This document shows, in pieces, positions 1-64,000 of a stretch of 64,000 nt of DNA; position 1 is the stretch's first letter, and every line of letters begins with the position of its first letter. A program made the translations under genes and the position numbers. Where the stretch lies: IMG/VR virus record IMGVR_UViG_3300028048_001599; one strand, written 5' to 3'. The notes under the pieces are model-generated. The model searched no databases and was not told the origin of the DNA. It saw only the letters and a program-made list of their open reading frames with translations. The stretch is from a virus. Lineage: Duplodnaviria; Heunggongvirae; Uroviricota; Caudoviricetes.

Positions 1-3000
1 GGTAGTAATACTTTAAGAGGTTATCCAATATACATGCAAACAGGAGGTAATTGTGGGCATAGTACGGCATATTCTTGTGCTGGTTTCAGTAATACTGAAA
101 AGGCTAAAAATATAGGTTATTTGAAGGCTGAAGCTAAAAACCAGAAGGACAAAAATAAGTATGTACGTTCGATGCAATACGAGATGCTTGATGGTTCTAC
201 TGTGGTAAAGTATAGCCCGGGTGGTGGTAAAAGTAGTACAATTTATTTGGAGGATTGTTTATCACAAGTTGTATCAGAGTTAGATTCCGGTGCATTAACT
301 CAATTTGATGCTATAGCCTTTTGGTATTTTTATACAAGAATGGCATTAGGTGTTGCGAGAGATAAAGTAAACTTAGGTGGTACAAGTACTGGTAATAGTG
401 ATTTGGGTGATGCAATGAATGATGTAATAACAAATGGATATAAAAACCAAAACCATGGTTATCAGGGAGACCAACTAAAACATGAAAAAATGTTACAACA
501 TGGTTATGTCGTAGCTTTGGCATGCATATATGGTCATAAATCTGTACCTGTAAAAAGTATTACAGGTTCAGAATTTAAGAAAGTAAGTAATTATTCTGAT
601 TTGGACATATCCTGGAAGGACGACCTCACTTCTATAGTCATTGATCGTATGGAAGGTTTATGTATAGATTATAAAATTAAAGAAAATGGCATGAATAAAA
701 CAACTTCGGGGTATGTTGCATTTACAGTGCAAGATTTTTTGGCATTGTATCAGAAAGTAGAAACCTTATTAGATAATGATAACACGGCTAAAGAATATAT
801 GACTTCTACGGTTAAGCATATAAACTTAACTAGTGGAAATAGCGGTTCGTTAGGTTGGGTAGCCGGTAAGTCAAAAGATAGAGGAAATAATATGGGTCTT
901 GTACGTATGATAGACTATATATACCCTGTTAGAACTAATGGCAATCAGATAAAAGAACATGCTAAAAGGTTGAATAATGACGGTAGTTACACAGAAGGCG
1001 ATTACCGAGTATTCGGAGGCTGGGGTTACTACCCATTTAAAGCAGAACCTGAGGAAGAAAAATACAAACAAATAAGTGTTGCTGCACCAGATAAAACACA
1101 GATAGCCACGGAAATTACTTATAATGCTTATTTAAGTGACTCAGATAAGTTTGATGCAGGTAACACATCAACATCTAACTCATTGGCAGAACGTGAAAGT
1201 ATGGGTGCTAACTCACACGTAATGACTGACACAGTATACATGTCTGATGTTGTTGACTTATATAAAATTCTTGGCAATGATATAGACATTAATAAAAACA
1301 AGGCATACCTACTAACTATAGTTAATAAGTCAATAAAATTATCTGCGCCCACAAAAAACACTACTTACAACTTAGCAAGATTACAATACCAGATTACAAG
1401 TGCAAACGGTGAGTATTCATCAACAGGTATGGGTACTGACAAGAGTAGTACTAGAACATTAATGCCAAAAAATGCTCCCTATACTGCGAATGACACACAG
1501 CTACGTAATGGTAGTATTGCAGTAAAAGGTTCAGACATACTTTACGCACTCGGTCGAGGTAATGAAGTTAGTTCAGATTACGCAGAACACTGGGTAAATG
1601 GTTTATGGCATCCGGCTGAGTTTAGACTTCGTAAGCGTATAAATAAAACAAATGATGGACTTAAAGAAGGTTATTATAACGTAGCAAAAGGTAAGACTTA
1701 TTATACTGCTAAAAAAAGTTCAGATGGTTCTGCACAGATTGTATCACATACAGCTACCAAGGATGACCAGAAGGTTTATTACCAAATTGCATATTATTCC
1801 AATGGAAAATTCTACTTATATCCAAATAATACTAATAATAACAATGTAAAAAATTCAGGATATAAGGGTGGTAAAACAACTGATGATGCATTGTACACTA
1901 CAGCTAACAGTACTAATTGGGCAAAAGATAACGGACATTGGGGTACTTTTAATGTTGATGATACTTCTATTTATTCCGAGAATGTTGGTTATGTTCTTAT
2001 AAACGGAAAATGGGAGCCATTTGTGTTTGAAAAGGATGGTAGTACTGTAAAATGTTATTATTGCCCTGTTGTGTGCTGCACTAACTTGTTAGTTCAAATC
2101 AAAGCAGATTACTTAGCAACATTTGCAGAAAAACTAAGTAATGGTAATGATAATCCAAATTATAAAAATACTTTCCAATCAGTGCCTATAAAGTCTTATT
2201 TACTGGCACAAAATCATAATACTGATAACTTTGTTCAAAATGGTAAAACATTATATTCTATGTTAGACTTGTATTGTAACAATACTTGGGGTACATTGGT
2301 TTCACGTAACTTCTCTATTCAAAATAATTCAGGTTCTATTGTAAAATTACCTGACAATTCATCGGAAAACTCAGTAGAAAGGTATGAAACAGGTAAGGGT
2401 GCATATAAAGACTGGTTAGCACATAAAACTAGCGATAATACATGGGTAACTGCTTCTACGAATAATTTACTTGGCTCAGATTTGTTAAAATTAAGTTATG
2501 TTTCTGCTATAGATAAGACAAGACCTATTTATGCTGAGACAACTGCTGGTTGTTCTACCTATGTAAATACACAGTTAGCTACAAAAATGAGGATTTATAA
2601 TGCATCTAACGTTAAACAAGGTAGTGACAAAACTGTTTATAAGACTTCTAATTTGTTGTGGACAAAGCAAAATGCAGCATCCACGAGTGATGAAAACCGT
2701 TTTGACTCTATACTGTGGGCGGCTAACGACGAAATAGCACCTGCGGAAGGTGCTATGTATATGGGTGGTAAAGTAAACTATGCAAACTTAACGTCTAATG
2801 CTAGTGATACTGGTATAATTTATACTAGCGACATATCTGCTGATGTACCCAGGTATTTTGGTTTAGAAAATCGGTATATAGAAAACTACTTTACAAAGAT
2901 GTTAGTTCACTATAATGCTATAGTCTACCAATCAAAAGCAGGTACTTCTGCAGCTCCTGTATTAGCATTATGGGTTGGTTCATCAAAAGCTGGTTTTACA

Positions 3001-4902: not shown

Positions 4903-4929
4903 CGAAATGCATCACATTTCATTAAAGGT

Positions 4930-4952
4930 AGCACCCTACATTGTAGGGTGCT
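4930..4952 (+). terminator. Rho-independent terminator
   Basis: Inverted repeat AGCACCCTACA-T-TGTAGGGTGCT followed by a T-rich run, just after the stop at 4902. Confidence 0.8.
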
Positions 4953-4995
4953 CCTTAATTTTTACATAAACCACTGTAGTTTATAATAAGTAGAG

Positions 4996-5211
4996 GTGAT
5001 AAAGATGTTTCATCTATTAGAAATAGCAATAGGGGTAGCCACATGTTTGATAATAGTAGTACTAGTATCGTTCATTTCAGTGCTATGTATAAAGCGTATT
5101 GACAACAAACTTGGTGACAACTTCATTCAGCAAAACCAAAGCGATAATGGTGTGCCTATTGACACAAAGTATTTAAAAATAACAAACAGTAAAGAGGATG
5201 ATAAATTATAG
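4996..5211 (+). CDS. Small single-pass membrane protein
   Basis: 71 aa, N-terminal hydrophobic helix, GAGGTG at the start. Confidence 0.55.
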   Translation: MIKMFHLLEIAIGVATCLIIVVLVSFISVLCIKRIDNKLGDNFIQQNQSDNGVPIDTKYLKITNSKEDDKL

Positions 5212-5421
5212 GTAGTAATAATATCACCTATGAACTTATTGAAATACAAGAAGTCTGGTGAAAAAGTAGTCAATGCAGTTGTTGCAAACAATGGGACTGG
5301 CTATATTATACGTTCAACTTCCACCAGACCCTTCAGAACAATTTAGCTATATGTAATAAATTTTCAACACTTTATCAGATAATTCAAAGATATGAAAAAT
5401 CTGTAGATAAGGAGTGTTAAA

Positions 5422-7221: not shown

Positions 7222-7232
7222 TCATCAGTAAT

Positions 7233-7284: not shown

Positions 7285-7313
7285 TTGACATTTTAAGAAA
7301 AATATGGTATAAT
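7285..7313 (+). promoter_or_regulatory. Consensus sigma-A promoter with extended -10
   Basis: TTGACA(7285)-N17-TATAAT(7308), TG at -15/-14. Confidence 0.85.
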
Positions 7314-7319
7314 TATATG

Positions 7320-7450
7320 TAATAATGGGTAAAATAGAGGGGTATAGCTCGATTTTACGCCTGTGAAGTTAATAGGTTACGAGAACGATGACGTAGGAAG
7401 TTCATTGGCTTTAGACAATGTGTAGTTCACATAGTAGCTATTGTGAGCGT
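7320..7450 (+). ncRNA. Stand-alone IS200/IS605-type TnpB omegaRNA-like scaffold (IS right end) plus putative guide
   Basis: GATTTTACGCCTGTGAAG ... GTAGGAAGTTCATTGGCTTTAGACAATGTGTAGTTCAC resembles the 5' motif and terminal hairpin + GTAGTTCAC end I recall for IS605/IS1341 omegaRNAs. No tnpB is adjacent and it lies directly behind a promoter. Confidence 0.6.
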
Positions 7451-10195: not shown

Positions 10196-10224
10196 TTGAC
10201 AAAATACGACAAATATGTTATAAT
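10196..10224 (+). promoter_or_regulatory. Consensus sigma-A promoter with extended -10
   Basis: TTGACA(10196)-N17-TATAAT(10219), TGn present. Confidence 0.85.
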
Positions 10225-12542: not shown

Positions 12543-12569
12543 GACTCACGGTACATTATACCGTGAGTC
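12543..12569 (+). terminator. Rho-independent terminator
   Basis: GACTCACGGTA-CATTA-TACCGTGAGTC then TTAATTT. Confidence 0.75.
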
Positions 12570-12692: not shown

Positions 12693-12721
12693 TTGACAAA
12701 GTTTGCATTTTATGATATAAT
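12693..12721 (+). promoter_or_regulatory. Consensus sigma-A promoter with upstream A/T tracts
   Basis: TTGACA(12693)-N17-TATAAT(12716), TGn, long A/T tracts upstream. Confidence 0.85.
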
Positions 12722-19916: not shown

Positions 19917-20909
19917 ATGTTTACAGCAAAAGAAATGTTCGGGGTAACTGTTAAGGGTGCCCTCGAAAAGCGTGTTCAGACAATTGACTTTAATGGTGCA
20001 GACGCTGACGGTGTTGTTGAGAAAACAAACGCTGTTATAGGTGAAAGTAGACTTATGGCAGATGTTCCGGATTACCTTTCTGTAATCACACTTCATTATG
20101 ATACAGATGGTACTTCTGTTGATTCTGTTAAGCTTACTCTCAAAACTCGTGTAAGAGATGCAATTAATGACGACAATCTTAAGATTTCTACAATTATTCC
20201 TTATAATGATAGTTATAAGGAGACACTTGTTAACTTTGTCGCAAGATGGGTTGACGGTTACTTTGTAGCATTTAAGGCTCAGTCTAATGCTGAAGCACTT
20301 AATGAAGTTATTGCTCCGCTTTGTGGAGAAATTAAGGTATCTTTCGCATACAGTGACCTTGTAATTGTTTCTATGACAAACGATTCTGTAGTTCTCGGTC
20401 TTTCCGCTGAGGCACTTGCATACGCTACTGAACTTGATATTTTTAGTTCTATTGCATATGTAAGTTCTAAGGCACGTGAGGTTCTTGGTGCTTCACTTCA
20501 GACTCTCACAACTCCGTATGAGGTACTTACAACAAAGAATCGTATTCTTAAACAGCTTGGTGTATATACAAGAGTTGGGGTATCAAAACTCCTTAAGAAA
20601 ACATATAAGAAGAATATCAGCACAGCTGCAGCAGCACTTGAAGCACTCAATGCTAAGAGGGCTAAGGAGTTCCCGAATACCGACCCGATTGTTGAGTCAC
20701 CTGTTAGTAGATTTGAGTACACAGATGAAGCAGGTTCATTCTTTGGTCTTGTTAAGTGTGTCAAGTCTGAGGCAGTAAAGGAAGGTACACCTGTTGCACT
20801 TGACAAGGATGGTTACTCATATATAATTATTCTGTCACCGTTCGATAAGAAGATGCAGGTTCTTTCTGATGAGGACACAGCAGTTCTTCTTGAGTCACAG
20901 ATTGCATAA
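19917..20909 (+). CDS. Hypothetical protein with biased (highly expressed-like) codon usage
   Basis: 330 aa, RBS AAGGTGG, terminator downstream. Confidence 0.8.
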   Translation: MFTAKEMFGVTVKGALEKRVQTIDFNGADADGVVEKTNAVIGESRLMADVPDYLSVITLHYDTDGTSVDSVKLTLKTRVRDAINDDNLKISTIIPYNDSYKETLVNFVARWVDGYFVAFKAQSNAEALNEVIAPLCGEIKVSFAYSDLVIVSMTNDSVVLGLSAEALAYATELDIFSSIAYVSSKAREVLGASLQTLTTPYEVLTTKNRILKQLGVYTRVGVSKLLKKTYKKNISTAAAALEALNAKRAKEFPNTDPIVESPVSRFEYTDEAGSFFGLVKCVKSEAVKEGTPVALDKDGYSYIIILSPFDKKMQVLSDEDTAVLLESQIA

Positions 20910-23181: not shown

Positions 23182-23209
23182 ATATCCCGATATGAAAATA
23201 TCGGGATAT
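23182..23209 (+). terminator. Rho-independent terminator
   Basis: ATATCCCGATAT-GAAA-ATATCGGGATAT then TTTT. Confidence 0.75.
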
Positions 23210-26200: not shown

Positions 26201-26806
26201 ACAACTGTAGATTTCACTCCGAAAAATATGAGGAAAATAGTAACAGGGGTAGAAAAGATAGTATCACTTGCTGTTCCATCTAACTCAAAGTCACTTCAGG
26301 ATACTGCTAAGTCCTTTGAAGACATCTTGAATAATTATGAAGCCGACATTGATTATGATTACAGTACTCGTCTACTTAAACTTGTGTCTATGTTGGACTC
26401 ACTTGTTCAGATAGATACACCTGTATCGATGTCTGACTTGCGTTCAATATTAGGTATCGAATCGGAGGATGGTATAACAAATAAGTACTTCCTTAGTGAC
26501 GGGGTATCGGGTTTATTACTTGAAGATATTCAGACAGACCTTAACACTATAACACTTACCGTATCTGATGGTAGTCCTGTTCATGATTATTTATCACAGT
26601 TAATTCAAGGTAAAGCTCTTAATATGTCAACATCAACTATTTTATATGTAGCTCAGGACACCGGTTCTCTTGATTGCTTAGCTTCAAAATACGGGGTAAC
26701 AATAGTTATAACCGAAGAAAAAGGCAATAAAATCACAGCAACTATAGTAATAAATGGCAAAATCAGTGATGTATTGTTTTACTTAGACAATAATAAAGAA
26801 ATGTAA
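23243..26806 (+). CDS. MmeI-family type IIL/IIG restriction endonuclease-m6A methyltransferase with extra C-terminal extension
   Basis: N-terminal nuclease IDGYI...LIEMK, MTase motif I FLDPACGSGNFL, motif IV NPPF, GMHYTS, TRD and MmeI-type SLADLYDP...LRKAH, then about 260 extra residues. Likely ATG 23255. Confidence 0.9.
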   Translation: MFKDMSKLIKDFMEKWSTRGSEKSESQSYWIELLQTLGVQKPTNFIQFEKTVKDGRNTIYIDGYIPKTKVLIEMKSSTINLDDKLVQSNGDKLTPFEQAQKYIVHLPRSEHPRYVVTCNFKEIRVYDMENPNNAPVSIFINELNTQSYRLSFLIKEDNVHLERQVKVSKEAVQLISKLYDAFSKQYKTINEETSRNLNILCVRIVFCLFADDSGLFEKNQFINFIQNSNVGLARQNLINLFKVLDTDEKDRDPYDTSGINSFPYVNGGLFKEVITIPTITEDMLETLVTVAEFDWSQISPTIFGSIFESTLSAKRRHENGMHYTSVVNIHKVIDNLFLDEFYAEFDRIRGIERKTLRSLELRKFQMKLATYKFLDPACGSGNFLTETYTCIRRLENEIIREIRKCDTSLFPSTESPIKVNIHQFYGIEIDDFAVSVARTALWIAEAQMFEETKDIGFDIDFFPLKSNNNIVEGNALRIDWAEVVGGVDTLNYIIGNPPFLGSKKMSKEQHSEVNSIFDKKEWSRSGNFDYVLCWFKKAVDMMLKNNKIKAALVATNSICQGEPVGTFWKRAIGLGININFAYTSFLWDNGADLEASVFVVIVGFDTNNESNKYIIDSNGFVSEANNISPYLIDADDAIVETTNVPLCNVPKMSFGCMAYDDGYLSKISVEDKKDICNKYPESEKYFRRILSGLEYLHNKERWCLWLEDVEIDELKGIPPIYERVESVRSYRLSSKSKATFEAAHTPTLFLIRKQPRSNYLAVPMVSSEKRKYIPVEYMTNDEIVLNTIYYIEDAPKWLFSIMTADLHTIWVHLVCARMKKDIHYSSTICYNAFPFITPTPEEENKLTELANNILQARANHPNKSLADLYDPENMPDDLRKAHKENDIYVRSLYGFKPDDTKEHILAGLLTCYKALSTGQIPEGWINVKKTNFVNKELEKPVTRAISIISKAKSIVDHRISELKPTDNTYGMLSFISNKLKNFYSILTTVDFTPKNMRKIVTGVEKIVSLAVPSNSKSLQDTAKSFEDILNNYEADIDYDYSTRLLKLVSMLDSLVQIDTPVSMSDLRSILGIESEDGITNKYFLSDGVSGLLLEDIQTDLNTITLTVSDGSPVHDYLSQLIQGKALNMSTSTILYVAQDTGSLDCLASKYGVTIVITEEKGNKITATIVINGKISDVLFYLDNNKEM

Positions 26807-46359: not shown

Positions 46360-47649
46360 GTGGAATTAGGATTTCACCGTAAGTATAGACCTAATACATT
46401 GGCAGAGTATGTAGGTAACACTAAAAATGTAAAATCAATATTAAAAGTTCTCAGTGGGGGTAATAGACCGCAGGTATACTTGCTTGATGGTCATGCAGGT
46501 TGTGGTAAGACTACATTTGCACGTCTTATAGCAAAGGAGTACGTATGTGAAGAACGTAGTGACGAGCATGGTGCTTGTTGTAACTGTTTCACTTGTCGTG
46601 CTATGGATGAATTTATACTGACTGGTAATTCTGAGGATTTGATGAATGTCCGGGAAATAGATAATTCAGTGTCAGGTAATAAGTCAGACATTGATGAAAT
46701 ACTTAATGATGCAGAAATACCCTCATTTGACGGCGGTTGGAAAGTGTTCATCTTTGATGAATGTCACCTCATATCAAAGGCTGCTCAGGGACGTATGCTT
46801 AAGCTCCTTGAAGAACCTCCAGAAAATGTATTACTTATTCTATGTACAACTGACCCAGATATGTTGCTTGATACAATTCGTTCTCGTTGTCAGCATCATT
46901 ATACAGTAGTAAAACCTAAATTACAAGAATTAGCTGTATTATTGAAGCGTGTGTGTCAGAAAGAAAACGTGGTTGTAGAAGATAAAGCACTAGGGGTAAT
47001 TGCAACATCAGCAGATTTTGTTCCTCGACAGGCTTTAATTCAGCTCGAAACTGTAATAAATGAAAAACACGATGTAACTTATAATAATACAATAGAGGTT
47101 CTTAACGTAATTGCAGATTCATATTATTTTGATTTTTATAAGTATCTCACACAACCTCAGATAGACACATTTTCGTATATTAACTTCTTATCGGAGTTAA
47201 AGGAGAAGCTTGATTTAAAGCAGTTTATATCAGGTCTTATAACATTCACTAATAGGGGTATCTACGTATATAACGGTGTCAATCAGCAAGGTTTAGATAC
47301 ATCAGAAATAAAACGATATCGACAAATATTCTCAAAATTTAAAACAGGTGATATAATTCACATATTAAAGTTATTAAAAACAATTCAAAAAGGTGATATT
47401 GAAACAGAGTTATTACTACTTGGGTATGAAGGTATATTTAGTAGCAATATTGAAACAATAGAAGCGAATAGGGGTACTTTATCAGATAATGGAAATTCTG
47501 ATTTAAAGAGTGAACAAAACGCCGCGGTCGAACATTATGTAGAATCTATAACTTTAACTGAAGAAGAAAAAGAACAAAAGCTTTCTGATGATGACGACAT
47601 GTCTATTGATGACTTGGCTACTATGTTTAGTGGTGAAATTGTAATATAA
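46360..47649 (+). CDS. dnaX: DNA polymerase III clamp-loader subunit gamma/tau
   Basis: KYRP, Walker A GHAGCGKTT, zinc module C...CCNCFTC, DECH, LLKxLEEPP-like MLKLLEEPP, SRC motif. Confidence 0.9.
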   Translation: MELGFHRKYRPNTLAEYVGNTKNVKSILKVLSGGNRPQVYLLDGHAGCGKTTFARLIAKEYVCEERSDEHGACCNCFTCRAMDEFILTGNSEDLMNVREIDNSVSGNKSDIDEILNDAEIPSFDGGWKVFIFDECHLISKAAQGRMLKLLEEPPENVLLILCTTDPDMLLDTIRSRCQHHYTVVKPKLQELAVLLKRVCQKENVVVEDKALGVIATSADFVPRQALIQLETVINEKHDVTYNNTIEVLNVIADSYYFDFYKYLTQPQIDTFSYINFLSELKEKLDLKQFISGLITFTNRGIYVYNGVNQQGLDTSEIKRYRQIFSKFKTGDIIHILKLLKTIQKGDIETELLLLGYEGIFSSNIETIEANRGTLSDNGNSDLKSEQNAAVEHYVESITLTEEEKEQKLSDDDDMSIDDLATMFSGEIVI

Positions 47650-48965: not shown

Positions 48966-49231
48966 TGAAGGAAGTGGTAATAATGGTTGTAAAAAAGACA
49001 CAATCAGCAAGAATTAAGGAAATAGCAAAAGTTTTAGATTTACCTGAGGTTACGGTTAAACGTGTAATAGATGAGTACATTGCAAGTTTGCAGTATTCTA
49101 TAATTCAAGGCGAGGACATAGAAGTCCGAGGGGTATTTCAAGTAAGTGCAGAAGAAATTGGTGGTAGAATAGTACCACGGGGCACTGTTTCTCCTGCACT
49201 GAAAGAACGGGCAAAAAGGGGTTACATCTAA
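48965..49231 (+). CDS. HU/IHF-like DNA-binding protein with shortened arm
   Basis: IKEIAKVLDLPEVTVKRVIDEY...IIQGEDIEVRGVFQV...SPALKE fits the HU fold. The arm (RNPxTG) is missing. Confidence 0.6.
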   Translation: MKEVVIMVVKKTQSARIKEIAKVLDLPEVTVKRVIDEYIASLQYSIIQGEDIEVRGVFQVSAEEIGGRIVPRGTVSPALKERAKRGYI

Positions 49232-49848
49232 TGTTGTACAAGACCCATAAAGCTGCAGGTCTACTCGGTTGTTTAATTGCATTTGATGTAATGAAAAATA
49301 ACGGGCAGTTAGCACCTAATATTAACGAATTTGTACAGTTAGCTATCATTTACCCTGCTTGTTCTTGGGCTTCTACTGCTCCAGACCTTGACCATGCTAT
49401 ATGCAATGTAAAGGAACAAACTCCTATTAATATAGCAATAAATAAATTATTACATATAGGTAAATGTACCCACAGGTCGGTACAAACTCATAGTGTTTTA
49501 TTCACTGGTGGTTTTTGTTTATTACTGTTTGGTTTACTTCAATTATTAGGGTCACCAAATGTAGGGGTAGACGAAAACAGCATTGGTATAATAAGACTTA
49601 TGCTGTTAGGTATAACTTTCGGTATAGCAAGTCATCTGATAATGGATAGTTTATCTACAGCTGGTATTTGGTTAGTACCTAAATTGAAGTTTCGGTTAGT
49701 TCCGAACAGAAAAACTTTTGCAACGGGTGGTAAATGGGAGGACATTGTTAGATTTTTAGTATGTATTGCTATAGTCTATATGTGTATTCACTTGGTTGTT
49801 CGATGGTGTGGTTTTTCATTAACAATCGGGGGTATCCCAATACTTTAG
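49231..49848 (+). CDS. YdjM/DUF457-type membrane metal-dependent hydrolase
   Basis: TH, PDLDH, HRSxxTHS and SHLIMD motifs with TM helices. Confidence 0.8.
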   Translation: MLYKTHKAAGLLGCLIAFDVMKNNGQLAPNINEFVQLAIIYPACSWASTAPDLDHAICNVKEQTPINIAINKLLHIGKCTHRSVQTHSVLFTGGFCLLLFGLLQLLGSPNVGVDENSIGIIRLMLLGITFGIASHLIMDSLSTAGIWLVPKLKFRLVPNRKTFATGGKWEDIVRFLVCIAIVYMCIHLVVRWCGFSLTIGGIPIL

Positions 49849-53715: not shown

Positions 53716-55089
53716 ATGGTGAGAAAGAAAATTAAATATATTTTAAGTTTTATTGTGGTCTTAAGTATTGTACTTTCGTCTTGTTTAACTTTGACTGTAT
53801 TTGCAGAAAAAGATGATAAAATAGATAAACTTATAGGCGATGGTGGTACTGCAACCGGTGTAGGTCTTGCTACATGGATGATGCAATGTTACGTGGATGG
53901 TTGGGACTATCAAGAGGGGCAACAAGGATGGGGTGCAGCCGATTGTAGTGGTACAATAGCATATTATAGAAATGCAGGTATTGGTGCTTGCGGGATAACA
54001 GACATGATGGGTTCGGCAAAGGCAAAAAATTTACCTACTGGTGGTGCCGTTAATGGTAGGTTTCTTAAGACTTCTGATATGCCAAGAGTACATGGTATAA
54101 TAATGCATCATCCAGGACATGTAGGTGTGTTTTTAGGTAGTCAGGTAACATTGACTCAAGACGTTAATGGTAAATATGGTAAAGGTAATAGAAAAGGTGT
54201 AACACTTACAGGTAATGAACTTGATAATTCGGATTATGGTGTAGGACTTGTACTTAGAAACATGGATAATGCGGAAGGATCATGGACTGATTGGGGTTTT
54301 GCTGTCGGTTGTAAGTATCCAACTAAAGGGTTTGTTAAATTTAATAATAAAGTATTCTATTACGAACCTACAAACAAGGGGTACAGTGAATATGTAGTAA
54401 ATAAAACTGTGAAAGTAGACGGTAAAGATTATAAATTTAACGACAAGGGTGAATGTACAAGTGACACGAGTAGTGTAAAATTTGAGCAAACAACTTTTGG
54501 AACACCATCGGCATCGAGTGGTTCATCTAATAATAGTTCATCAGGTACTTCCGAAAATTCAGGTGAAACATCTGATTCAGAGTCAAGTGGGGGTACTACA
54601 GCAGTACAACCAGAGGAAGAATCTTACGCTGATAAAGAGCAGTTAGCAGCCGAACGTGATTTAACATACGAGGAGCAAGTAAGGCTTGAAGCAATAAATA
54701 ATGACATTAAGAATAAGCGAGAAATGGGTATATGGTCAGGAATATACACATTTTCAGGTTTATGCGGAATACTTATATTAATTTACAGTTTAATGTTGTT
54801 AGTTGCATTTTACATAGATTTATTTAATTCTTTTACTGAAAAAAGTTTACTACAGCTACTGACATTTGGTAAAATGTACTCAATAGGTAGTAGTAAAAAC
54901 AGGGAGTTTCTTGGTGCTATTGCTGAGGACAAAAAAGGCATTGTATATGCTACGCATGCTACAATATGGGCTTCATTCTGTATAGGGGTAATAGCATCGG
55001 CAGTTTTGATGAATATGCAAACAATTGTAGTGTTGTTCTTAAACATAGCAGATTGGTTTAGTGACCTATTAAATTTTGATATGAATTGA
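53716..55089 (+). CDS. NlpC/P60-type peptidoglycan hydrolase + cell-wall-binding repeat + C-terminal two-TM module (family B)
   Basis: ADCSG and HPGHVGVF catalytic motifs. PRVHG and KYPxxG(F/W)VK shared with the 41705 ORF. Confidence 0.75.
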   Translation: MVRKKIKYILSFIVVLSIVLSSCLTLTVFAEKDDKIDKLIGDGGTATGVGLATWMMQCYVDGWDYQEGQQGWGAADCSGTIAYYRNAGIGACGITDMMGSAKAKNLPTGGAVNGRFLKTSDMPRVHGIIMHHPGHVGVFLGSQVTLTQDVNGKYGKGNRKGVTLTGNELDNSDYGVGLVLRNMDNAEGSWTDWGFAVGCKYPTKGFVKFNNKVFYYEPTNKGYSEYVVNKTVKVDGKDYKFNDKGECTSDTSSVKFEQTTFGTPSASSGSSNNSSSGTSENSGETSDSESSGGTTAVQPEEESYADKEQLAAERDLTYEEQVRLEAINNDIKNKREMGIWSGIYTFSGLCGILILIYSLMLLVAFYIDLFNSFTEKSLLQLLTFGKMYSIGSSKNREFLGAIAEDKKGIVYATHATIWASFCIGVIASAVLMNMQTIVVLFLNIADWFSDLLNFDMN

Positions 55090-58000
55090 TTGGAGTGGTT
55101 TACGTGAGGAAGTTACGAAAAACAATAAAAATAGGGGTATCGCTACTTTTATCTGTAGCGATACTTTTGTGTTCAGGTATCGTTGTATATGCGGATGAAC
55201 CTACAGAAACAGATAGTGGGGGTACAGCTACGAGGGGAAACTATTCCACAATGGCAGGTAACATGCTTAAGAATTTTGCAGACGGTGGTGAAGGTAGTTT
55301 AACTATTGATAAAATATCTGCAACAGAATTTAGAGCTTGGGGTGTATTGGTTTCTAACTATGTAATACCATTTTATACTAACCCAACTGATATAACTAAA
55401 GACTTAGATTTAAAAGACTCATCAGGGGAGAAAAAATTTAATGTATGGAAACATTTATGTAAAATATGGCAAAAGTCAGGTAAAGATGAGGCACCTGATT
55501 CAAGTTTGTTAGCACAGTTAAGGCAGAAATATCAAGCTTGTTTTGCAACCGATAAAATGCAGAAAATATACTTAGATAGTTCTAATGAAGTTGCTAAAGT
55601 AGGCGACCTTATAACTAATGATAATATATTAAGTAACACAGATATGCTTTATTGGAAAGATGGTAGTTCTAAAAAATACATATTCAATATGGGTACTTAT
55701 AATGATAAAGCCGTATGCGCACTTGTTCGTTCAGTAAATTGTAAAACAGCTTTAGATCAAGACATGTTAGGTAAAGATTTATTTATATCTTGTTTTGGCG
55801 ACATATGTGCCTCAAAAGGGGGTAATGATGTAACTGTAATAATTCCAGCTTGCTTAAACCCATATTCTTTTGGTAAAGATGGAACTAAATTTATGATGAA
55901 CAATATGTTTGTGTTGGGTAATTTTTTATCACGAGATAATATAACTACAGATATAAAGTCAAATGACAATGGTGGAAATCTGTTTGACTCAGATGGTAAG
56001 GTAACCGATCATGCAACATGTACTGGTAATGAAACGACTACCTATGGTTCTTATTTTTACGGTAGAAAGATTGGTGCTAGTAGTTGGTTAAGTATATTTT
56101 TACACATTTCTAGTGATTCTATGGTACCTTATTTGCAGAGGGCGAGAGACGGAATTAAAGTCGATAACAGTGATGGTGACGTATTTGTAGCAGGTTTATC
56201 ACGTTATCATCCGAAGGATGGTTGTAGGGATACAGACTTAGCACAGGGGGTAGATTCATATTTAGCGTTTACACAGCCATTATGGTCTATCGGTACATTG
56301 AAATATATCGCAGATGAAACTAGTTATAAAAACGTTATAGGAATAACTGGACGTTCAAAATTAGTTGATAGTGATAAGATATTTTATAATAACAATGATA
56401 AAGGCATATTTACGAGATCTTCAGAATTGGCCTCTAATATTAGTTCTTTAAACTCAACCTTATTTACTTATAATTACACAAAAGAAGGAAATCTTTTTGG
56501 TTGGTCATCTACTGACTCAATAAATCATGAGAAACTTAATGATAAATATGGTATAGTAGATAAAACATATTTTCAAGCACAAATAGGTGGGTTTGGTGTC
56601 GCTAAAGATACAAGTGGAAAAATTAAAGTTTCATATAAGGATAATGGTGCAGATAAAGAGAAACAAATTCATGGGTCAATTAACGACTATACATCGTTAT
56701 TTAATGAAGTAGATAAAAATAGTAATAATGAAGCTCGTTATGTAACTATGTTTTTAGCAGGGCAGTACGTAGATGATGCAGTGGATAGTACGGGTCAGGG
56801 TTTTACAGATAACCGTATTAAATCTGTGGATAGACTGACTTGTTTTCAAATTCCAGTAGACAAAACAATATCAAAGTTAGGTATTTTTAACACTATTGCA
56901 AATTCTGACACTGCAAATTTTAAAACAATTAAAGCTATAAATTATACTGATGTCGGTGAAGGATCACAATTGAAAAAATACCATAGTAAAGCTATAAACT
57001 ACAAATCGCAAGGTAATAACGCAGCAGCTAATAGTGATTATAATAATGCTGTTGCAATGCCTGAGTCTTTATATGCACTAAATTGTCAAGACCTTAAAAG
57101 TTCTAATGCAGTCAAACTTTCTGATGGTGGTTTGTATTTAGCATCTGACCGTAATTTATTTGCTAATATATACTGGGCATATATTGAGGATATAGTAGGT
57201 ATCACAGCAGAAGACATAGAAAAGGCTATTGCGAATGGGTCTGAGGTCAAAGCACAAAAGATATCAACTGAGTTACCACCTGTTCCTGATTCTTCTGACT
57301 TTGCTTCTGATTTGGAAGCTCAGTTATCGAGTTCAGAAGTTGCGGATGAAGTGGCTGAAGCTGCTAACAGTGAACTTGAGAAAAAGCAGGCAAGTATCAT
57401 AGATTGGACATACAAGATTCTTTCAGGTGGTACATCTGGTGCTCTTGCAGACGCTGGTCAATATGTTATTAGTTGGTTAAAATCTCTTGTTGATGGTTTA
57501 TTCTTAGGTATGCATAATGCTATGGTAGGTATTGACGTAACGAATGGTTTGACTGGTACTGTGAAAGGTATAGGTAACACAAATCAGTCAGGTGTATATT
57601 CAACGGCAGTGGGGTATATAACAACACCAACATTTGATAGTCTACCTATAACAAGTTGGGTTACAAATAATTTTACGATAATGTACGTCGCCTTAATGTT
57701 ACTTGTAGTAGTAATATTGATATTTATGGTTGTATCGAAAGCACGACGAATACCGCAAGCAGTAGGGGTATTTATAGTGATGGCATTTGTATTAGTACTT
57801 CCAGCAAATTTACTAAACAATAGTATAAATATATCAAACATGGCTGCTGAAAAGATATATAGTGAAAAGTTTATGTACTGGGCAGTAATGCAACATGCGG
57901 AATATTTAGTTAATCAAGGTAAAGCCGATAATGTAGACCAACAGATTTTAGCAGATAACATGTCAAGACAGGCTGAGGCTACTAAAACAGGTGGTGTAAC

Positions 58001-61000
58001 TGTAAAATGGTTATGTCCTAAAAAGTGGGGTATCACTGAGCAAATAAAATCGGTAACAAAAAATACAAAGGGTTTAGGTTTGTTCTTGTACTTTGCTGGT
58101 GATATACTTGATGGTGAAGATTATAGTTATAATATATCTTCTGACGGAACATATTTATATCGTTCCTACACAGCTATATTTGTTGAAGCTAAGGGTTTGC
58201 AAAAATCACTCGATGAAACAAATAAAAACTATTCCGACAAATTAAGTGCTATATCTCCAAAGATAAGAGCCGAATGGAACGGTTCAAACAAAGCTAAATA
58301 TGGTGCTGTTACATTAACAAAGTCTGACGGTAAAAGTGGTTCGTACACTTTAGCTAATAAGACAACCGAAAATGGTTCTGTAAAAACTGTAACACCAGAT
58401 ACAAATTTGTTTAGATTTAAAACAATTCGTGGTGATACATTCTTTAGAGCAGCACTTGGTCAAAATAGTATTGATAAAGATGGTAAGTCTAAGGTTTATC
58501 CTGATGGTTATTATGACTCATATTACGGTTCTAATGGTATAATGAAGGTAAAAAATAACACGTTTAAATCAAACAATAGGATTTATTCGATGTATTTGGA
58601 TAGTAATTTGACATCGGCGGTATTTAACTTTAACGTCAACAATGTATCTTGGAACCCGATTACAAAAGCTAAGAAGTGCGGTCTTTGGATATCTGACGAT
58701 AATAGAGTCGCAGTTGACGAGGAAGTAGATGCTAATATCTACAAAGAAGGGGTAAGAACATTTCTTGATTATTCTGAGAGTCCTTATTATTATTTTTATA
58801 ATGTATTCTCTGATACAACTATTAAAACAGATAATAACGATACAATAAGTGGCGCTGATGACTTTGTAACTTTGTTATTAAGTGACGAGTTTTTCACTGT
58901 AACTGACCAAAAGAGTAAGGCATATGGTGAAGTTAAAGATTACCTTGATTTGGAAGGTCTATTTACATACATAATACCGTTCTTAGACTACGCTAATCAG
59001 GATGCTGCAAAATATTTTCAAAAGTGGGGGTACGATGTAAAACGTACGGACATTGAAGAAACCTCAGAAACATCAAAGAAAGAAACATCAAAGCAAGAAT
59101 CTTCTAAAAAAGAGACATCAAAACCTGAATCGTCTAAACCTGAGTCATCTACTGAGGAAACTTCCGAGGAAGTTGAGGAAGAAACACCAAAGACACAGGC
59201 AGAGCTTGATTACGAGGAGCATAAATCTCAAAATCAAGCTGTTTGGAACTTGTACTCACCTTGGGTAAATGCACTTATGGACGCTAATAATAAGGTTCAA
59301 ACAGCTAATTCAGGTTATGGTCAGGTAACAATTCTTGAAGCTTGTAACCCCGCTGATTATACCTATAATAATCGCCCAATGGCGTACTCACCAGCAGAAA
59401 AGCAATTGAGGGGTTATGCAGATATCGATCTTACTACGGTTGAATACAAGTTACAAAAAGTATTAAAAGAAACACGTGAAGATTTGATCGAGTTGTTGAA
59501 TTATAAAGACTTAACAGGTGAGGGGGTACCTGAAGGTAACGATATCCTTATAAGTGCTGCAGCAATGATTGCAACATTCCACTTCAATCAAGAATTTAGT
59601 GACACAGGTTTCATGTCAACTAATATTCAAATGTACCCTGTATCATTTGAGTTGAAGAATATGAACTATGACGCATATTTAAGACTTATAATGGGCAATT
59701 CAATGGGGGTAAATCAAGTTAAACTTATGAAGAATAAGAGTACAGCTAATCAAACAATCTATGAAACATTTGTTCATAACACATCAGCTGTTTCTGCTAT
59801 AATTCTTATTCTTGTAGACGCAATGGGTGTATTTGTAATACCAATTATGAAAATATTATTAATAGCTATTATATTCTTCTTAGCATTGGCACTATCCATA
59901 TCGTGTATTATAAATGCTCCTGAAAAATTGTTACCAACGATAATAAACACATTTGTATTACCTGTTTTAGGTATGATATCCATATTTACAATGCATGCAA
60001 TAGTGGTATCGTGGTTCATAGGCGACGGTGCATCAGGGGTAATAGACTCGCATAGTATAGCAATTACAACTGGTGACCCAACAATAACATTGCTACTGTT
60101 ACTAATTGTTGATGTTGTAACATCAATTTTAATGTGGAAACTTTTGAAATATGCTGCTGTATCAACTGTTAAGTATATAAAGGCAACATTTAGTGGTATT
60201 AAGGACATGGCTACAAATCTGTTTGGTAATATTGTTGGTTCTATTGGAGCAGTAGCAGGTGTAGGAACACTAGCTGTAGGTACTGCTGGACTTGTAGGAA
60301 AAGCGGCAACTGCAACTGCAAAAGTAGGGGCAGGGGTAGTCAAAGCAGGTGTTGGGCATCACAGAGCTAAAGTACAAAAAGAGATTGCTAAGAACACTCG
60401 TAATAATGGAAACGGACAAGGTAACAGAACTGAAAATGGTCAAGGTAATGGAAATGGACAAGGTCAAGGTCAGGCTCAGGGTCAAGGACAAGGTCAGGCT
60501 CAGGCTCAAGGACAGGGTTCAGGTCAAAACAATAATTCTTCTGGTAACAATTCTACTGTGTCATCTGATAATAATTCTAATGGTGACAACAATTCCAATG
60601 GTAATTCTACTAATGCTAAAATGTCATCTGAAAATAAGCAACAGATGGAACTTAAGAAAACTAATGAAACACTTAAGGAAATTAGTGGAAAACTTGACAG
60701 AGTTTCATTTAGTCGAAGTGTAGGTGGTTCACCTGCTAATCCTATGACTGGTTCACCATTTAAGGCTGATTTGGAAAACGCTCAAAAGACTGAAAGTGGT
60801 ATTTATGTATCAAATAACTCAGGTAAAAATGGAACTACAAACACTGAGTCTAAGAAAACCAAAATAAATAGTGCATCACCTGCTAGAGCCGCACAAAATT
60901 ACGGTAATTCAAGTACCGCATCAAATTTTGATTTTGGTTTTGGTAATAAAGAGCCATCTGGAAACTCTGCTAAACCTGTGAAATTGTTTGGAGCGGATGG

Positions 61001-61016
61001 AAAACCGTTGTTATAA
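55086..61016 (+). CDS. Giant polytopic membrane protein, VirB6/TraG-like mating-channel candidate
   Basis: 1976 aa with signal peptide, TM clusters near residues 865-910 and 1570-1745, and a Gly/Gln/Asn-rich tail. Flanked by peptidoglycan hydrolases. Start may be GTG 55104. Confidence 0.6.
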   Translation: MIGVVYVRKLRKTIKIGVSLLLSVAILLCSGIVVYADEPTETDSGGTATRGNYSTMAGNMLKNFADGGEGSLTIDKISATEFRAWGVLVSNYVIPFYTNPTDITKDLDLKDSSGEKKFNVWKHLCKIWQKSGKDEAPDSSLLAQLRQKYQACFATDKMQKIYLDSSNEVAKVGDLITNDNILSNTDMLYWKDGSSKKYIFNMGTYNDKAVCALVRSVNCKTALDQDMLGKDLFISCFGDICASKGGNDVTVIIPACLNPYSFGKDGTKFMMNNMFVLGNFLSRDNITTDIKSNDNGGNLFDSDGKVTDHATCTGNETTTYGSYFYGRKIGASSWLSIFLHISSDSMVPYLQRARDGIKVDNSDGDVFVAGLSRYHPKDGCRDTDLAQGVDSYLAFTQPLWSIGTLKYIADETSYKNVIGITGRSKLVDSDKIFYNNNDKGIFTRSSELASNISSLNSTLFTYNYTKEGNLFGWSSTDSINHEKLNDKYGIVDKTYFQAQIGGFGVAKDTSGKIKVSYKDNGADKEKQIHGSINDYTSLFNEVDKNSNNEARYVTMFLAGQYVDDAVDSTGQGFTDNRIKSVDRLTCFQIPVDKTISKLGIFNTIANSDTANFKTIKAINYTDVGEGSQLKKYHSKAINYKSQGNNAAANSDYNNAVAMPESLYALNCQDLKSSNAVKLSDGGLYLASDRNLFANIYWAYIEDIVGITAEDIEKAIANGSEVKAQKISTELPPVPDSSDFASDLEAQLSSSEVADEVAEAANSELEKKQASIIDWTYKILSGGTSGALADAGQYVISWLKSLVDGLFLGMHNAMVGIDVTNGLTGTVKGIGNTNQSGVYSTAVGYITTPTFDSLPITSWVTNNFTIMYVALMLLVVVILIFMVVSKARRIPQAVGVFIVMAFVLVLPANLLNNSINISNMAAEKIYSEKFMYWAVMQHAEYLVNQGKADNVDQQILADNMSRQAEATKTGGVTVKWLCPKKWGITEQIKSVTKNTKGLGLFLYFAGDILDGEDYSYNISSDGTYLYRSYTAIFVEAKGLQKSLDETNKNYSDKLSAISPKIRAEWNGSNKAKYGAVTLTKSDGKSGSYTLANKTTENGSVKTVTPDTNLFRFKTIRGDTFFRAALGQNSIDKDGKSKVYPDGYYDSYYGSNGIMKVKNNTFKSNNRIYSMYLDSNLTSAVFNFNVNNVSWNPITKAKKCGLWISDDNRVAVDEEVDANIYKEGVRTFLDYSESPYYYFYNVFSDTTIKTDNNDTISGADDFVTLLLSDEFFTVTDQKSKAYGEVKDYLDLEGLFTYIIPFLDYANQDAAKYFQKWGYDVKRTDIEETSETSKKETSKQESSKKETSKPESSKPESSTEETSEEVEEETPKTQAELDYEEHKSQNQAVWNLYSPWVNALMDANNKVQTANSGYGQVTILEACNPADYTYNNRPMAYSPAEKQLRGYADIDLTTVEYKLQKVLKETREDLIELLNYKDLTGEGVPEGNDILISAAAMIATFHFNQEFSDTGFMSTNIQMYPVSFELKNMNYDAYLRLIMGNSMGVNQVKLMKNKSTANQTIYETFVHNTSAVSAIILILVDAMGVFVIPIMKILLIAIIFFLALALSISCIINAPEKLLPTIINTFVLPVLGMISIFTMHAIVVSWFIGDGASGVIDSHSIAITTGDPTITLLLLLIVDVVTSILMWKLLKYAAVSTVKYIKATFSGIKDMATNLFGNIVGSIGAVAGVGTLAVGTAGLVGKAATATAKVGAGVVKAGVGHHRAKVQKEIAKNTRNNGNGQGNRTENGQGNGNGQGQGQAQGQGQGQAQAQGQGSGQNNNSSGNNSTVSSDNNSNGDNNSNGNSTNAKMSSENKQQMELKKTNETLKEISGKLDRVSFSRSVGGSPANPMTGSPFKADLENAQKTESGIYVSNNSGKNGTTNTESKKTKINSASPARAAQNYGNSSTASNFDFGFGNKEPSGNSAKPVKLFGADGKPLL

Positions 61017-61029
61017 GGAGGTATTGTAA

Positions 61030-64000
61030 ATGATTTTAAGTACAATACTTCGGGTAACACGAAATGCAGCTAGAGCAGCAGCTAAAAGTGGTAAGAAGTT
61101 AGTAAATGGGGTAGCAAGTACTAGACGTACCGTCAGTGGTGAAACTACTGACGGTAACGTCAAATCTAATGATACTTTAATGAATAAGTTCAAAACAAAG
61201 AATAAGAAGTTAAGAAAACTCAAGTCAATGAAAAAAGTAGGTAAGAGTTCTAAAAAAGTAGCTTCTAATCTTTTTATACTTGCAGTTGGTTTTGTTGAGG
61301 ACATATTATCATTACTTTTTGGTTCTGCATTAATATTTATGCTTATTTTATGTACACTCATTCCAGTTTTGGCTGTTGTAATAATGGGAACAATAGATGG
61401 GGTATCAAGTATATCGACATCAGGTGATAATTTCACTACAACAGGTGGAAGTGGAGGTGTTCAGATAACTGACCCTTCTACATATGATTGGTGGGGTAAT
61501 AAGGAACAAAATATGAGGCTTCTTACAGATGACTATGATAAAGAACTTTACCAGTTAATAATGATGAATATGGACTTAGCACAATACTCGCACAGTGATA
61601 CAAGTGTTGATAATTTATGGAATGGTACATTTGGTGTGGGTATTTTATACGCCGAAATGGGTGGTGGTATATCCTCAAAAATAGTGAATTTTCATGAGGG
61701 TACGGAAGCTGAGAAAAATCAACTTAAATATGAAAAGTGGAACTATGTATTTGCACCGTTCTGTTTGGGTTATTCATCTGACTATCTTGGTGATGGACCT
61801 GTAGGTTTATCATGGGGGTTACCAAAGAAAGATGTAAGTTATGAGTACAGTCATTATGAAATTAAAAATGTTAATAAAAAGTGGTTGGACGATAGTGCTA
61901 CTGGTACAAGTAGTTATCATGGTACTTATAATGATAATCAAAAATACGCTATATGGACGACTCCTGGTAGTTTGAAATGGTCATACTATAATACAATTGC
62001 ATATTCTTATACAGACTGGCGAACAGAAGCGTTCGACAGGTGGGGTGTTGAAAAATCTGATGAAAACTTATATAATATAGCTACATGTGATTATTATGCA
62101 AAACACCATGGACATGCAGCCGGAAATAAAGATGAAAAAGCAGTACTTGAATATATGTTAGCATTGTATAATTATGTAGATAAGGACTTAAATAATGTGT
62201 ATATTGTGGATAGTTCAGGTAAACTAGCAAAAGATGAAGGACACGCAATATATAGGGAAGTGTTAGCTAATGATTTTGGAAAGACTTCATCAAACTACAT
62301 CAAAGTAATACACGATGGCAAGGAACACACATTCAAAGGTTCAGGTGACGATTTATTGGGTAAAGCACTTTTAGATTGGGCTAAAAGTGAAAACCCATCT
62401 GGTTATAAAAAATTAAAAGAGGCTATAGATTATGGTAGCGATGGCGCACCTGGTTTCAATGGTAATACATTGTTCTCATCAAATGTAAGTAACTGTATTG
62501 GTATTTATTTAATAGGTTCAACTCTTGTGAAATATATGGTTGAAAAATTAGGTTTAACATTTGACGTTGCAACAACAGACAACAGTAACTTCCCAGGTGG
62601 TACACAGACAGCGAAGAATGTGGTAGCAGTGATGACTGATTTATATAACAAGCATGGTGCTAAATCTTCGGATAAGTGGACAATGGGATATAATCAATTA
62701 TTAAATTCTAACGGTAGTAAAGCAACTAATTTTAATACTGAGTGGTGTGCAATGTTTGTAAATACAGTACTCAATACGGCAAAGATAAACGGTAGCACAA
62801 AGACAGTAGCTCAAGGATTACACGATGTAACTAATGACCTATTCCCATCTGGTGCATGTGCCGAAATGGGGTATGGTAATTCACGTAAATATGATTCTTT
62901 GTTTACGTCAACAAGTGGACTTTCAAATCGAGCGGAAATCACAAAATCGGGGTATGTGACAGCACACTATGGTGGTCAAGAGCTTAGTGGTAAAAATGCA
63001 ACTAAAGATTATAAAGGTGAAATTAGTAAAGAATCATTATACAAGCCTAAAGCTGGTGATATAATTGTATTTTCTTTTGGAAATCATGAATTTTATGACC
63101 ATGTTGGTATGGTTCGAGAAGATAGTGAATCATTTTATACTGTAAATACAATTGAGGGAAATACAAATGATGATAATGAAAATTACGGTGCTGGTGGTTG
63201 GTTAAATACGCGAGGTTATAGTAATAGCACTAGTATTTGTATGTACCTCGAAATAAACTACCTTGCACTTGAAGAAAAATTCGGTACACCATCAATAAAG
63301 ACTGGTGGCTCTGGTGGAAAATTAGACATTAATAAATATGTTGAAACTCAGGCTAAGACGTTAGGTAACGATTCAACACTTAGTGGTTGTAGTCAGGTTC
63401 TTGATGTAGTTACATCAGGTACATCAGCGAAACTTACAGTTTACAATAAGTCTAACGGTAAATGGACAAAAGGTGGTTTAGTTGACGCTAGTGGATTCAT
63501 AGGAAAAGACGGGGTAGGTTCTAAAGACTCAAACGCTAATGAGAGTTGTTCAAAAACGCCATTTGGTGCATATTATCTTGGCGTAAACTTTGGTGGATTT
63601 GGTATTGCTCAAAGTGGTTTAAAGATTGACTGGAAGAATGTGTCGTCAAAACAATCATATTGGGGTTCGTCTAATAACTCAAAGCATTTAAACAAATTCT
63701 ATCAGGCTTCTTCGGCGGAGACGAGTGCTGATGAAAACTTAACAAGTATATGTAATAGTGGTGCTTATAAGTATTCTATACTTATAGAATATAACTACGG
63801 TAATAATGCTAAAAAAGGTGGCGGTTCAGCGTTCTTCCTACATGTAGGTAGTAACCCAACCGCAGGATGTGTAGCAACATCAGAGTCTAATATGAAGAAA
63901 ATTGTTGATTGGATAGATAAATCAAAGAAAACAAGGATACTTATTCATCCTGAGGACTCAAAAGTAATTGCTGTAGCAACAGTATCTACAGGCGGTAGTT
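61030..64000 (+). CDS. Membrane-anchored multidomain cell-wall enzyme: CHAP amidase + YkuD L,D-transpeptidase (3'-truncated by the window; missing from the ORF track)
   Basis: AAGGAGGT RBS, ATG 61030, frame open to 64000. Basic N-terminus + TM, then WCAMFV (62743)...PKAGDIIVF...HVGMV...TIEGN (CHAP), then KTPFGAY...GSAFFLHVGSNPTAGCVA (YkuD). Confidence 0.85.
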   Translation, partial: MILSTILRVTRNAARAAAKSGKKLVNGVASTRRTVSGETTDGNVKSNDTLMNKFKTKNKKLRKLKSMKKVGKSSKKVASNLFILAVGFVEDILSLLFGSALIFMLILCTLIPVLAVVIMGTIDGVSSISTSGDNFTTTGGSGGVQITDPSTYDWWGNKEQNMRLLTDDYDKELYQLIMMNMDLAQYSHSDTSVDNLWNGTFGVGILYAEMGGGISSKIVNFHEGTEAEKNQLKYEKWNYVFAPFCLGYSSDYLGDGPVGLSWGLPKKDVSYEYSHYEIKNVNKKWLDDSATGTSSYHGTYNDNQKYAIWTTPGSLKWSYYNTIAYSYTDWRTEAFDRWGVEKSDENLYNIATCDYYAKHHGHAAGNKDEKAVLEYMLALYNYVDKDLNNVYIVDSSGKLAKDEGHAIYREVLANDFGKTSSNYIKVIHDGKEHTFKGSGDDLLGKALLDWAKSENPSGYKKLKEAIDYGSDGAPGFNGNTLFSSNVSNCIGIYLIGSTLVKYMVEKLGLTFDVATTDNSNFPGGTQTAKNVVAVMTDLYNKHGAKSSDKWTMGYNQLLNSNGSKATNFNTEWCAMFVNTVLNTAKINGSTKTVAQGLHDVTNDLFPSGACAEMGYGNSRKYDSLFTSTSGLSNRAEITKSGYVTAHYGGQELSGKNATKDYKGEISKESLYKPKAGDIIVFSFGNHEFYDHVGMVREDSESFYTVNTIEGNTNDDNENYGAGGWLNTRGYSNSTSICMYLEINYLALEEKFGTPSIKTGGSGGKLDINKYVETQAKTLGNDSTLSGCSQVLDVVTSGTSAKLTVYNKSNGKWTKGGLVDASGFIGKDGVGSKDSNANESCSKTPFGAYYLGVNFGGFGIAQSGLKIDWKNVSSKQSYWGSSNNSKHLNKFYQASSAETSADENLTSICNSGAYKYSILIEYNYGNNAKKGGGSAFFLHVGSNPTAGCVATSESNMKKIVDWIDKSKKTRILIHPEDSKVIAVATVSTGGS

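Follow-up and report, generated by a model that had tools for sequence, protein, structure and literature searches.

The hexamer GGGGTA, repeated 128 times on the plus strand of a 64,000-nucleotide stretch of the IMG/VR virus record IMGVR_UViG_3300028048_001599 (hereafter the window, taken at its full length), is a genuine, strongly selected, one-strand DNA signal. By exact count its reverse complement, TACCCC, occurs nowhere on the same strand, and the copies, all of them co-oriented and none on the minus strand, are dispersed over positions 708-63516 (the first at 708, the last at 63511) at about one per 494 bp. Protein homology and gene order place the window in the pXO16 family of giant plasmids, of which it is a distant and uncultured member. 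Polar over-represented oligomers are a known kind of signal; no description of GGGGTA, of its density, of its drift within the family or of its connection with pXO16 was found in the literature searched, which contained no mention of the word for pXO16 and did not take in the primary papers of 2015 and 2018 (Makart) on that plasmid. The earlier note on this DNA, made from the letters alone, had likewise not recognised the word as a described motif.

The estimates of that note, about 125 copies on the plus strand, no TACCCC and on the order of 10 copies to be expected, agree closely with the exact values, and every position cited in it was confirmed. Base composition predicts 11.5 copies and a second-order Markov model 24, and GGGGTA is the top-ranking hexamer of the window, above every A/T-rich word at a G+C content of 34.2%. 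The one-mismatch variants are without comparable enrichment, the other GGGG-containing words are rare, and a preference for particular flanking bases, looked for around the copies in the window, was not found, so that no longer motif is indicated. The absence of TACCCC is not in itself a mark of avoidance, since only about 1.75 copies would be expected in the genes and three occur in 124 kb of the source contig.

The plausible genes of the window, 59-61 in number, all lie on the plus strand. As a control for coding, of the codon-aware kind proposed earlier as a check, synonymous codons were shuffled within each gene 500 times, with the proteins and the per-gene codon counts, the GGG codons included, being kept; the shuffled genes held 23.2 +/- 3.7 copies (maximum 35) versus the 118 observed inside the genes. 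The copies occupy all three codon phases (69, 27 and 22), as had been claimed, and coding and non-coding DNA hold them equally often, at 2.0 per kb. A codon or dipeptide artefact as the cause of the word is ruled out by these three results together, and the claim that protein coding does not explain it holds. The copies reported earlier between genes, in an omegaRNA-like element and in tnpB are present as well: an intergenic one (5032-5037, plus strand) stands just 3' of a terminator-like hairpin (4930-4952) and 5' of an ftsH-like gene, a non-coding one (7339-7344, plus strand) lies inside the omegaRNA-like transcript driven by a perfect TTGACA-17-TATAAT promoter at 7285-7313, and another (28322-28327, plus strand) is inside tnpB (27783-28898), so that a mobile-element-derived gene also bears the word.

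The spacing is more even than chance would give, with a coefficient of variation of 0.67 versus 0.99 for random placement, none of 5,000 randomisations being equally regular; the largest gap is 1,566 bp versus about 2,911 bp expected, and gaps shorter than 100 bp number 11 versus 39 expected. The word leaves its trace in the proteins too, because the Gly-Val dipeptide, over-represented 1.44-fold in the window proteins, is mostly written GGG-GTA (69 of 131 pairs) despite GGG being a minor glycine codon, of which 94 among the 162 in the window belong to GGGGTA. A tRNA-Gly(CCC), which reads GGG (the word more than doubles the use of this codon), is encoded in a tRNA cluster about 110 kb downstream of the window start (L252:15810-15881), together with Glu-UUC, Asn, Thr, Leu-UAG and one odd tRNA; this tRNA may be a compensation for the cost of GGGGTA, and its own gene holds one copy. 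The DNA uptake sequences (DUS, or uptake signal sequences, USS), which occur on both strands and often as inverted pairs in terminators, were ruled out as an identity of the word by the strand counts of 128:0 in the window and 658:5 in pXO16.

The window is a reversed segment of a 323,685-bp metagenome contig (ENA ERZ27252073 k141_446481), parts of which are present in a second sample. The contig was walked by exact-protein look-ups and 123,846 bp of it were covered, over which GGGGTA stands at 247:3 by strand with a steady density of about 2 per kb, including 1.8 per kb in a largely non-coding tRNA region. All called genes in this part share one strand, save one open reading frame (ORF) of 31 codons, the GC skew is about +0.2 throughout, and a switch in gene direction, skew or word polarity was looked for over the 124 kb and not found. 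Downstream of the window are encoded a VirB4/HerA-like ATPase, an FtsK/SpoIIIE-family ATPase, an SNF2 helicase, GyrB- and GyrA-like proteins, a DnaB-like helicase, Big_2 surface proteins, tRNAs and the anaerobic ribonucleotide reductase NrdD. The search for primase, helicase, FtsK and AddAB genes suggested earlier was successful for the DnaB-like helicase and the FtsK-like ATPase, while no complete primase and no AddAB were recognised in the parts covered.

The cultured relative was found by tblastn against PLSDB, in which the family FtsK-like ATPase (37% identity) and the clamp loader (41%) matched the 349.6-kb plasmid pXO16/pBTHD789-1 (NC_018516) of Bacillus thuringiensis sv. israelensis, the DnaB-like helicase being 31% identical. 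Only 4 of 61 window ORFs have a detectable homologue there, at 28-41% identity; the gene order common to both comprises the clamp loader, YdjM, a giant protein, FtsK, SNF2, GyrB, GyrA and DnaB, and in both cases a clamp loader, a DnaB-like helicase and a type II topoisomerase are supplied by the element itself. On pXO16 GGGGTA is counted 658 times on the coding strand versus 5 on the other, over the whole circle, with 13-26 copies in every 10-kb bin, and both GC and AT skew are positive in every bin; the polarity map against GC skew, another of the checks proposed, thus gave one polarity and one skew sign round the circle, and the earlier view of a polar DNA-level signal spanning the element is upheld. 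Neighbouring copies are spaced at a median of 436 bp and never more than 2,071 bp apart, with a coefficient of variation of about 0.7. The plasmid has 425 ORFs on the plus strand, the minus-strand ORFs being small, doubtful and with few or no copies of the word. Its copies favour AGGGGTA (A at -1 in 70%), are twice as dense in non-coding as in coding DNA and, in 84 of the 163 non-coding cases, lie 3-12 nt before a start codon, i.e., in the Shine-Dalgarno position of 19% of the genes, versus only 5-6 genes in the present element. According to the published work, all coding sequences of pXO16 are in one orientation, the plasmid transfers single-stranded DNA (ssDNA) via a 25-kb tip locus, its relaxase and origin of transfer (oriT) have not been identified, it mobilises oriT-less plasmids and chromosomal DNA, an intact single-strand origin (sso) and its orientation are crucial for the rolling-circle plasmids it mobilises, and aggregation-linked conjugative ssDNA transfer lacking a known relaxase is a phenotype reported for pXO16 only (PMC6199540, PMC9673590).

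Hundreds of relatives of the element's clamp-loader gene occur in metagenomes only, on contigs reaching about 480 kb, and the word was surveyed in the 20-kb loci around 45 of them. In these loci all genes share one strand and each lineage has its own polar, enriched word: GGGGTA in L084, L092/93, L108/109, L253 and L254 (up to 74:1 in 21 kb), GGGGTAG in L090/91, GGGGGTA in L098/105, GGGTA(T) in nine loci (up to 111:1, 4.3 per kb) and (C/G)GGTATC(C/T), or SGGTATC, in 18 loci (about 1.6 per kb), with GGTA as the core common to all variants. The comparison with related elements that had been proposed therefore yields polar GGTA-core words across the family and the very same word in pXO16. The cellular dnaX loci retrieved with the same query bear no comparable polar word. 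In the clamp-loader tree the elements form one clade separate from cellular DnaX, on which the word classes require no more than the minimum number of changes; the metagenomic GGGGTA/GGGTAT clade has pXO16 as its sister, the GGTATC clade is next out, and a plasmid of Bacillus velezensis is basal. The latter and its counterpart of B. amyloliquefaciens (215 kb; NZ_CP076292.1, L278, and NZ_CP071971.1) are more distant one-directional relatives, with a clamp loader 32% identical, a GC skew of +0.35, and genes for NrdEF, NrdI and diadenylate cyclase; neither bears a clear polar word. Against an 88%-identical relative, at 71% nucleotide identity, 10 GGGGTA sites are shared, while 14 and 8 are private, and individual sites therefore turn over while the density holds; such turnover agrees with a distributed signal that does not depend on where exactly each copy lies. 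The search of IMG/VR and GTDB genomes for close relatives gave only cellular dnaX genes or matches of at most 39% identity, and no near-identical phage or plasmid records were found.

In the 5 + 401 + 301 sampled Bacillota genomes, none of which is a confirmed host, GGGGTA reaches at most about 1.1 per kb over both strands and at most about 1.7 times a control word, versus 2 per kb on one strand, about 11 times the expectation, on the elements; on the co-resident plasmid pBtoxis it has 19 and 15 copies by strand in 128 kb, below the control word. Since the word drifts with the element phylogeny, keeps GGTA and is missing from host-type chromosomes and pBtoxis, it is probably read by an element-encoded protein.

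As to what is read, the explanation we tentatively prefer, at a likelihood short of even, is a priming signal, dispersed along the strand that one-way replication or transfer would leave as ssDNA; which way replication runs, which strand becomes single-stranded and what reads the word are here inferred. One-way replication would be implied by the single polarity and the single sign of GC skew round the whole circle. The plus strand, which is the G-rich one and co-oriented with the genes, would then be exposed either as template for the lagging strand or because it is displaced or transferred, and complementary-strand synthesis would be begun at 5'-GGGGTA-3' by a primase system containing a DnaG-type zinc ribbon, the 3' A being cryptic and the primer pppACCCC, by analogy with T7 gp4, which acts at 5'-GGGTC-3' to give pppACCC, and with Firmicute DnaG, acting at 5'-(C/T)TA-3'. 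Because a hexamer turns up by chance only every 5-6 kb at 34% G+C, selection would have to enrich GGGGTA to hold the fragments at or below 1.5-2 kb, and the even spacing with an upper bound (1,566 bp here, 2,071 bp in pXO16) is counted in support. So are the replisome parts that the elements themselves encode, the crucial orientation of the sso in mobilisation, and a CHC2 zinc-ribbon protein of pXO16 (PF01807, E 2e-11; 190 amino acids), which matches the zinc-binding domain of DnaG from Geobacillus and Aquifex and whose gene lies 8 kb downstream of the DnaB-like helicase gene. Between these two genes there are about ten paralogous genes for proteins of some 200 amino acids, and the stand-alone CHC2 gene is followed (172218-173711 on pXO16) by one for a 291-residue protein nearest to phage RuvC-like nucleases.

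However, several observations weigh against priming. The CHC2 protein, with just 190 amino acids, has no catalytic domain; its 291-residue neighbour was considered as the TOPRIM domain and rejected, being RuvC-like instead, and the DNAG_N and Prim-Pol domains were searched for in pXO16 and are absent, with only a sub-threshold Toprim_4 match elsewhere on the plasmid. A CHC2 homologue was sought in the 124 kb of the present element and none was found; the protein upstream of the DnaB-like gene, examined as a primase, gave only weak hints of a PD-(D/E)xK nuclease. In T7 itself the GGGTC site counts 39 on the relevant strand versus 55 on the other, near expectation, although T7 would need no enrichment because its primase sites are common enough by chance, and we know of no primase site that has been reported as enriched genome-wide. 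The skew is confounded with the direction of transcription, since all genes are one-stranded, and the replication direction is read from the skew alone; a reverse-oriented gene block was sought in the family loci and pXO16 and not found, a minus-strand ORF of 408 amino acids in L105 overlapping plus-strand ORFs. Finally, a clear polar word was sought in the 215-kb B. velezensis relative and is absent although that plasmid is one-directional. The primase site suggested in the earlier note has thus gained the zinc ribbon of pXO16, the absence of the word from host-type genomes and the sso role, all of them circumstantial, and a complete primase was not recognised on these elements.

Among the other explanations, a Chi-like function is doubtful. 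A helicase-nuclease at broken forks, either the host AddAB/RexAB or an element enzyme, would read GGGGTA in ssDNA and turn degradation into repair, and the element would have amassed the word in the active (leading-strand) orientation, as the Chi-rich phages do. The word is indeed short, G-rich, over-represented, evenly spread and co-oriented with the presumed replication, its inverted copies are not avoided, as Chi would predict, and pXO16 encodes a UvrD-family helicase of 745 amino acids. That a mobile element may amass a polar word has its precedent in the phages LLS, where 20 of the 23 Chi sites are in the active orientation and the sites occur about once per 1.86 kb, and MD8, where all 32 sites are on one strand (PMC12315714). 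However, Chi is normally over-represented on the host chromosome, and GGGGTA is not so in the 707 sampled Bacillota genomes (none confirmed as a host) or in pBtoxis; the parts covered held no recognisable nuclease-helicase of the AddAB or RecBCD type, and the density of the word, which in one lineage reaches one GGGTA per 230 bp, is far above that of the Chi-rich phages. Moreover, the Chi of B. subtilis AddAB is AGCGG, an unrelated sequence. About equally unlikely is a transfer signal, by which the relaxase-less tip-type secretion system of type IV (T4SS) would recognise, nick, load or orient its own DNA, the word serving as a distributed oriT substitute or as a guide for the FtsK/SpoIIIE-family coupling ATPase. 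This would agree with the efficient ssDNA transfer of pXO16, for which no oriT or relaxase is known (PMC9673590, PMC6199540). The single polarity round the circle is what transfer from one strand would give, this element and pXO16 are syntenic in their transfer genes, and the FtsK-like ATPase (P0121, L246:13557-15905) is among the best-conserved family proteins, with 37-100% identity. The FtsK_gamma (winged-helix) domain was, however, searched for in this ATPase by Pfam and is missing, the PDB match being confined to the motor domain, and the C-terminal 90 residues (700-789) are acidic, of low complexity and unconserved in a 45-sequence alignment; an ssDNA pump needs no orienting word, and the small plasmids mobilised by pXO16 would hold 0-1 chance copies, which makes the word not strictly required. 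The ATPase begins with Gly/Phe-rich repeats (GGGFG units), FG-repeat-like and conserved in 45 relatives, followed by two or more transmembrane helices, long acidic linkers, a conserved uncharacterised domain (residues 271-400) and the motor. The FtsK-orienting polar sequences (KOPS) and SpoIIIE recognition sequences (SRS), put forward earlier as an alternative, are weakened by the same lack of a gamma-domain reader, and their two-replichore geometry is ruled out, since the single polarity of the pXO16 circle never converges on a terminus or dif-like site. It is also possible, though rather unlikely, that GGGGTA and its GGTA-core variants are the missing cis-element of pXO16-type conjugation and replication, present in several hundred copies along one strand and replacing both oriT and the sso: an element-encoded zinc-ribbon or other protein would read GGGGTA on the transferred strand, and a single strand of 350 kb would be recognised as self and made duplex at hundreds of points at once.

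The remaining two explanations are still less probable. A transcription or RNA signal, which we hold to be improbable, would act as an ops-like pause or antiterminator loading site on the non-template strand, or as a site in mRNA (a Shine-Dalgarno-like GGGGU, or one for an RNA-binding protein). Every gene is on the GGGGTA strand, so that the word is always in the non-template strand and the RNA, the SGGTATC variant is similar to the core of GGCGGTAGCGTG, the ops element of RfaH, and the start-codon-proximal copies of pXO16 would suit ribosome binding. However, 87% of the copies in pXO16 and 97% here are away from ribosome-binding sites, the GGTATC variants are not Shine-Dalgarno-like, and internal Shine-Dalgarno-like words are usually avoided in genes; the spacing is even regardless of gene boundaries or operon leaders, while ops needs one site per operon. 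An ops element for an RfaH/NusG paralogue is disfavoured, a NusG-family domain not having been found on pXO16 and the sites being spread evenly inside genes. Very improbable is a one-strand modification of DNA, such as N6-methyladenine (m6A) set by the MmeI-like or another methyltransferase as a mark of self, a possibility raised in the earlier note. The window does encode an MmeI-like type IIL restriction-modification enzyme (23243-26806, plus strand; its own gene holds 6 copies), and the MmeI family modifies one strand of asymmetric 6-8-bp sites. But pXO16 carries the word at equal density and no MmeI-like homologue, by which this enzyme is ruled against as the reader; restriction-modification targets are usually avoided and not enriched tenfold, the slow drift of the word with phylogeny differs from the switching that swaps of target-recognition domains would give, and the position of the adenine in GGGGTA misfits the usual penultimate-A rule of the family.

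Other genes of the window, all on the plus strand, place it within the family. The element-specific clamp-loader gene (DnaX/HolB-like, 46360-47649) is the family marker, its product being 41% identical to the pXO16 homologue; a YdjM-like metal-dependent hydrolase (49231-49848) is syntenic with its pXO16 homologue; a polytopic protein of 1976 amino acids (55086-61016), the first of the transfer (tip-like, T4SS-like) cluster, is partially homologous to a pXO16 protein of 1834 amino acids; and a cell-wall hydrolase of the same cluster with CHAP and YkuD domains (61030-64000), 1134 amino acids in full, continues past the window end. Beyond the window, L248/L249 encode the GyrB-like and GyrA/ParC-like type II topoisomerase, and most other proteins are without any Pfam match. 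The window further contains four perfect 12/12 sigma-A-type promoters (TTGACA, a 16-17-nt spacer, TATAAT), all on the plus strand, at 7285-7313, 10196-10224, 12693-12721 and 20800-20827, and terminator-like hairpins at 4930-4952, 12543-12569 and 23182-23209.

The signal is of interest in that Chi and KOPS each revealed a machine tracking DNA in one direction, and GGGGTA is far denser and cleaner. It is conserved, and drifts, across a large and almost unstudied giant-plasmid family of Firmicutes, common in gut and environmental metagenomes, and is a simple sequence signature for spotting its members there. The sequence of pXO16 was reportedly once called "terra incognita", and its origin of transfer, relaxase and mode of replication are said to have remained unidentified since; GGGGTA may bear on how such plasmids copy or transfer their DNA. 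Since pXO16 is cultivable, with established conjugation assays, the word is a directly testable, mutable cis-element, and, if it did replace oriT and the sso, it would represent a new way of organising conjugative DNA processing.

Compared with the known systems, the words of the Chi-rich phages LLS and MD8 are likewise short, G-rich and over-represented in one orientation, while GGGGTA is a hexamer, 4-8 times denser, and not the over-represented word of the host in the genomes tested. With KOPS/SRS and the architecture-imparting sequences it shares a strong strand polarity across the whole replicon; it differs in having no arms converging on a terminus or dif, in a density 10-20 times higher and in inverted copies that are not measurably avoided. 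The inocles, giant extrachromosomal elements of oral Streptococcus with about 32% G+C and a sortase/LPXTG load, are reported to switch their gene orientation at ori and ter (PMC12340149). The pXO16-like family resembles them in size, G+C content and sortase/LPXTG genes and is without that switch; an inocle identity of the element was not established. The sites of T7 gp4 and DnaG are alike in the G-run followed by T and a cryptic 3' base, the predicted pppACCCC resembling the pppACCC of T7, and GGGGTA would similarly lie on what is presumed to be the template of the lagging strand, a zinc ribbon of the DnaG type being encoded by pXO16; unlike it, the sites of T7 show neither enrichment nor polarity in their own genome, and a complete primase is not recognised on the pXO16-like elements. 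The ssos of rolling-circle plasmids, for which host RNA polymerase or primase is the reader, are structured, 150-200 nt long and occur singly. They are orientation-dependent, are placed on the displaced or transferred strand and start complementary-strand synthesis, as is proposed for GGGGTA, which is, in contrast, a hexamer repeated about 650 times. The closest counterpart is pXO16 itself, which is distinguished by its preference for AGGGGTA and its many copies in ribosome-binding sites, the present element being set apart by an anaerobe-type metagenome origin (NrdD encoded) and by the fact that no CHC2 gene was found in the 124 kb covered; both are giant, with all genes on one strand and GGGGTA at equal density and polarity, and both bear a tip-type transfer cluster in which the giant polytopic protein, the hydrolase and the FtsK-like ATPase follow in the same order.

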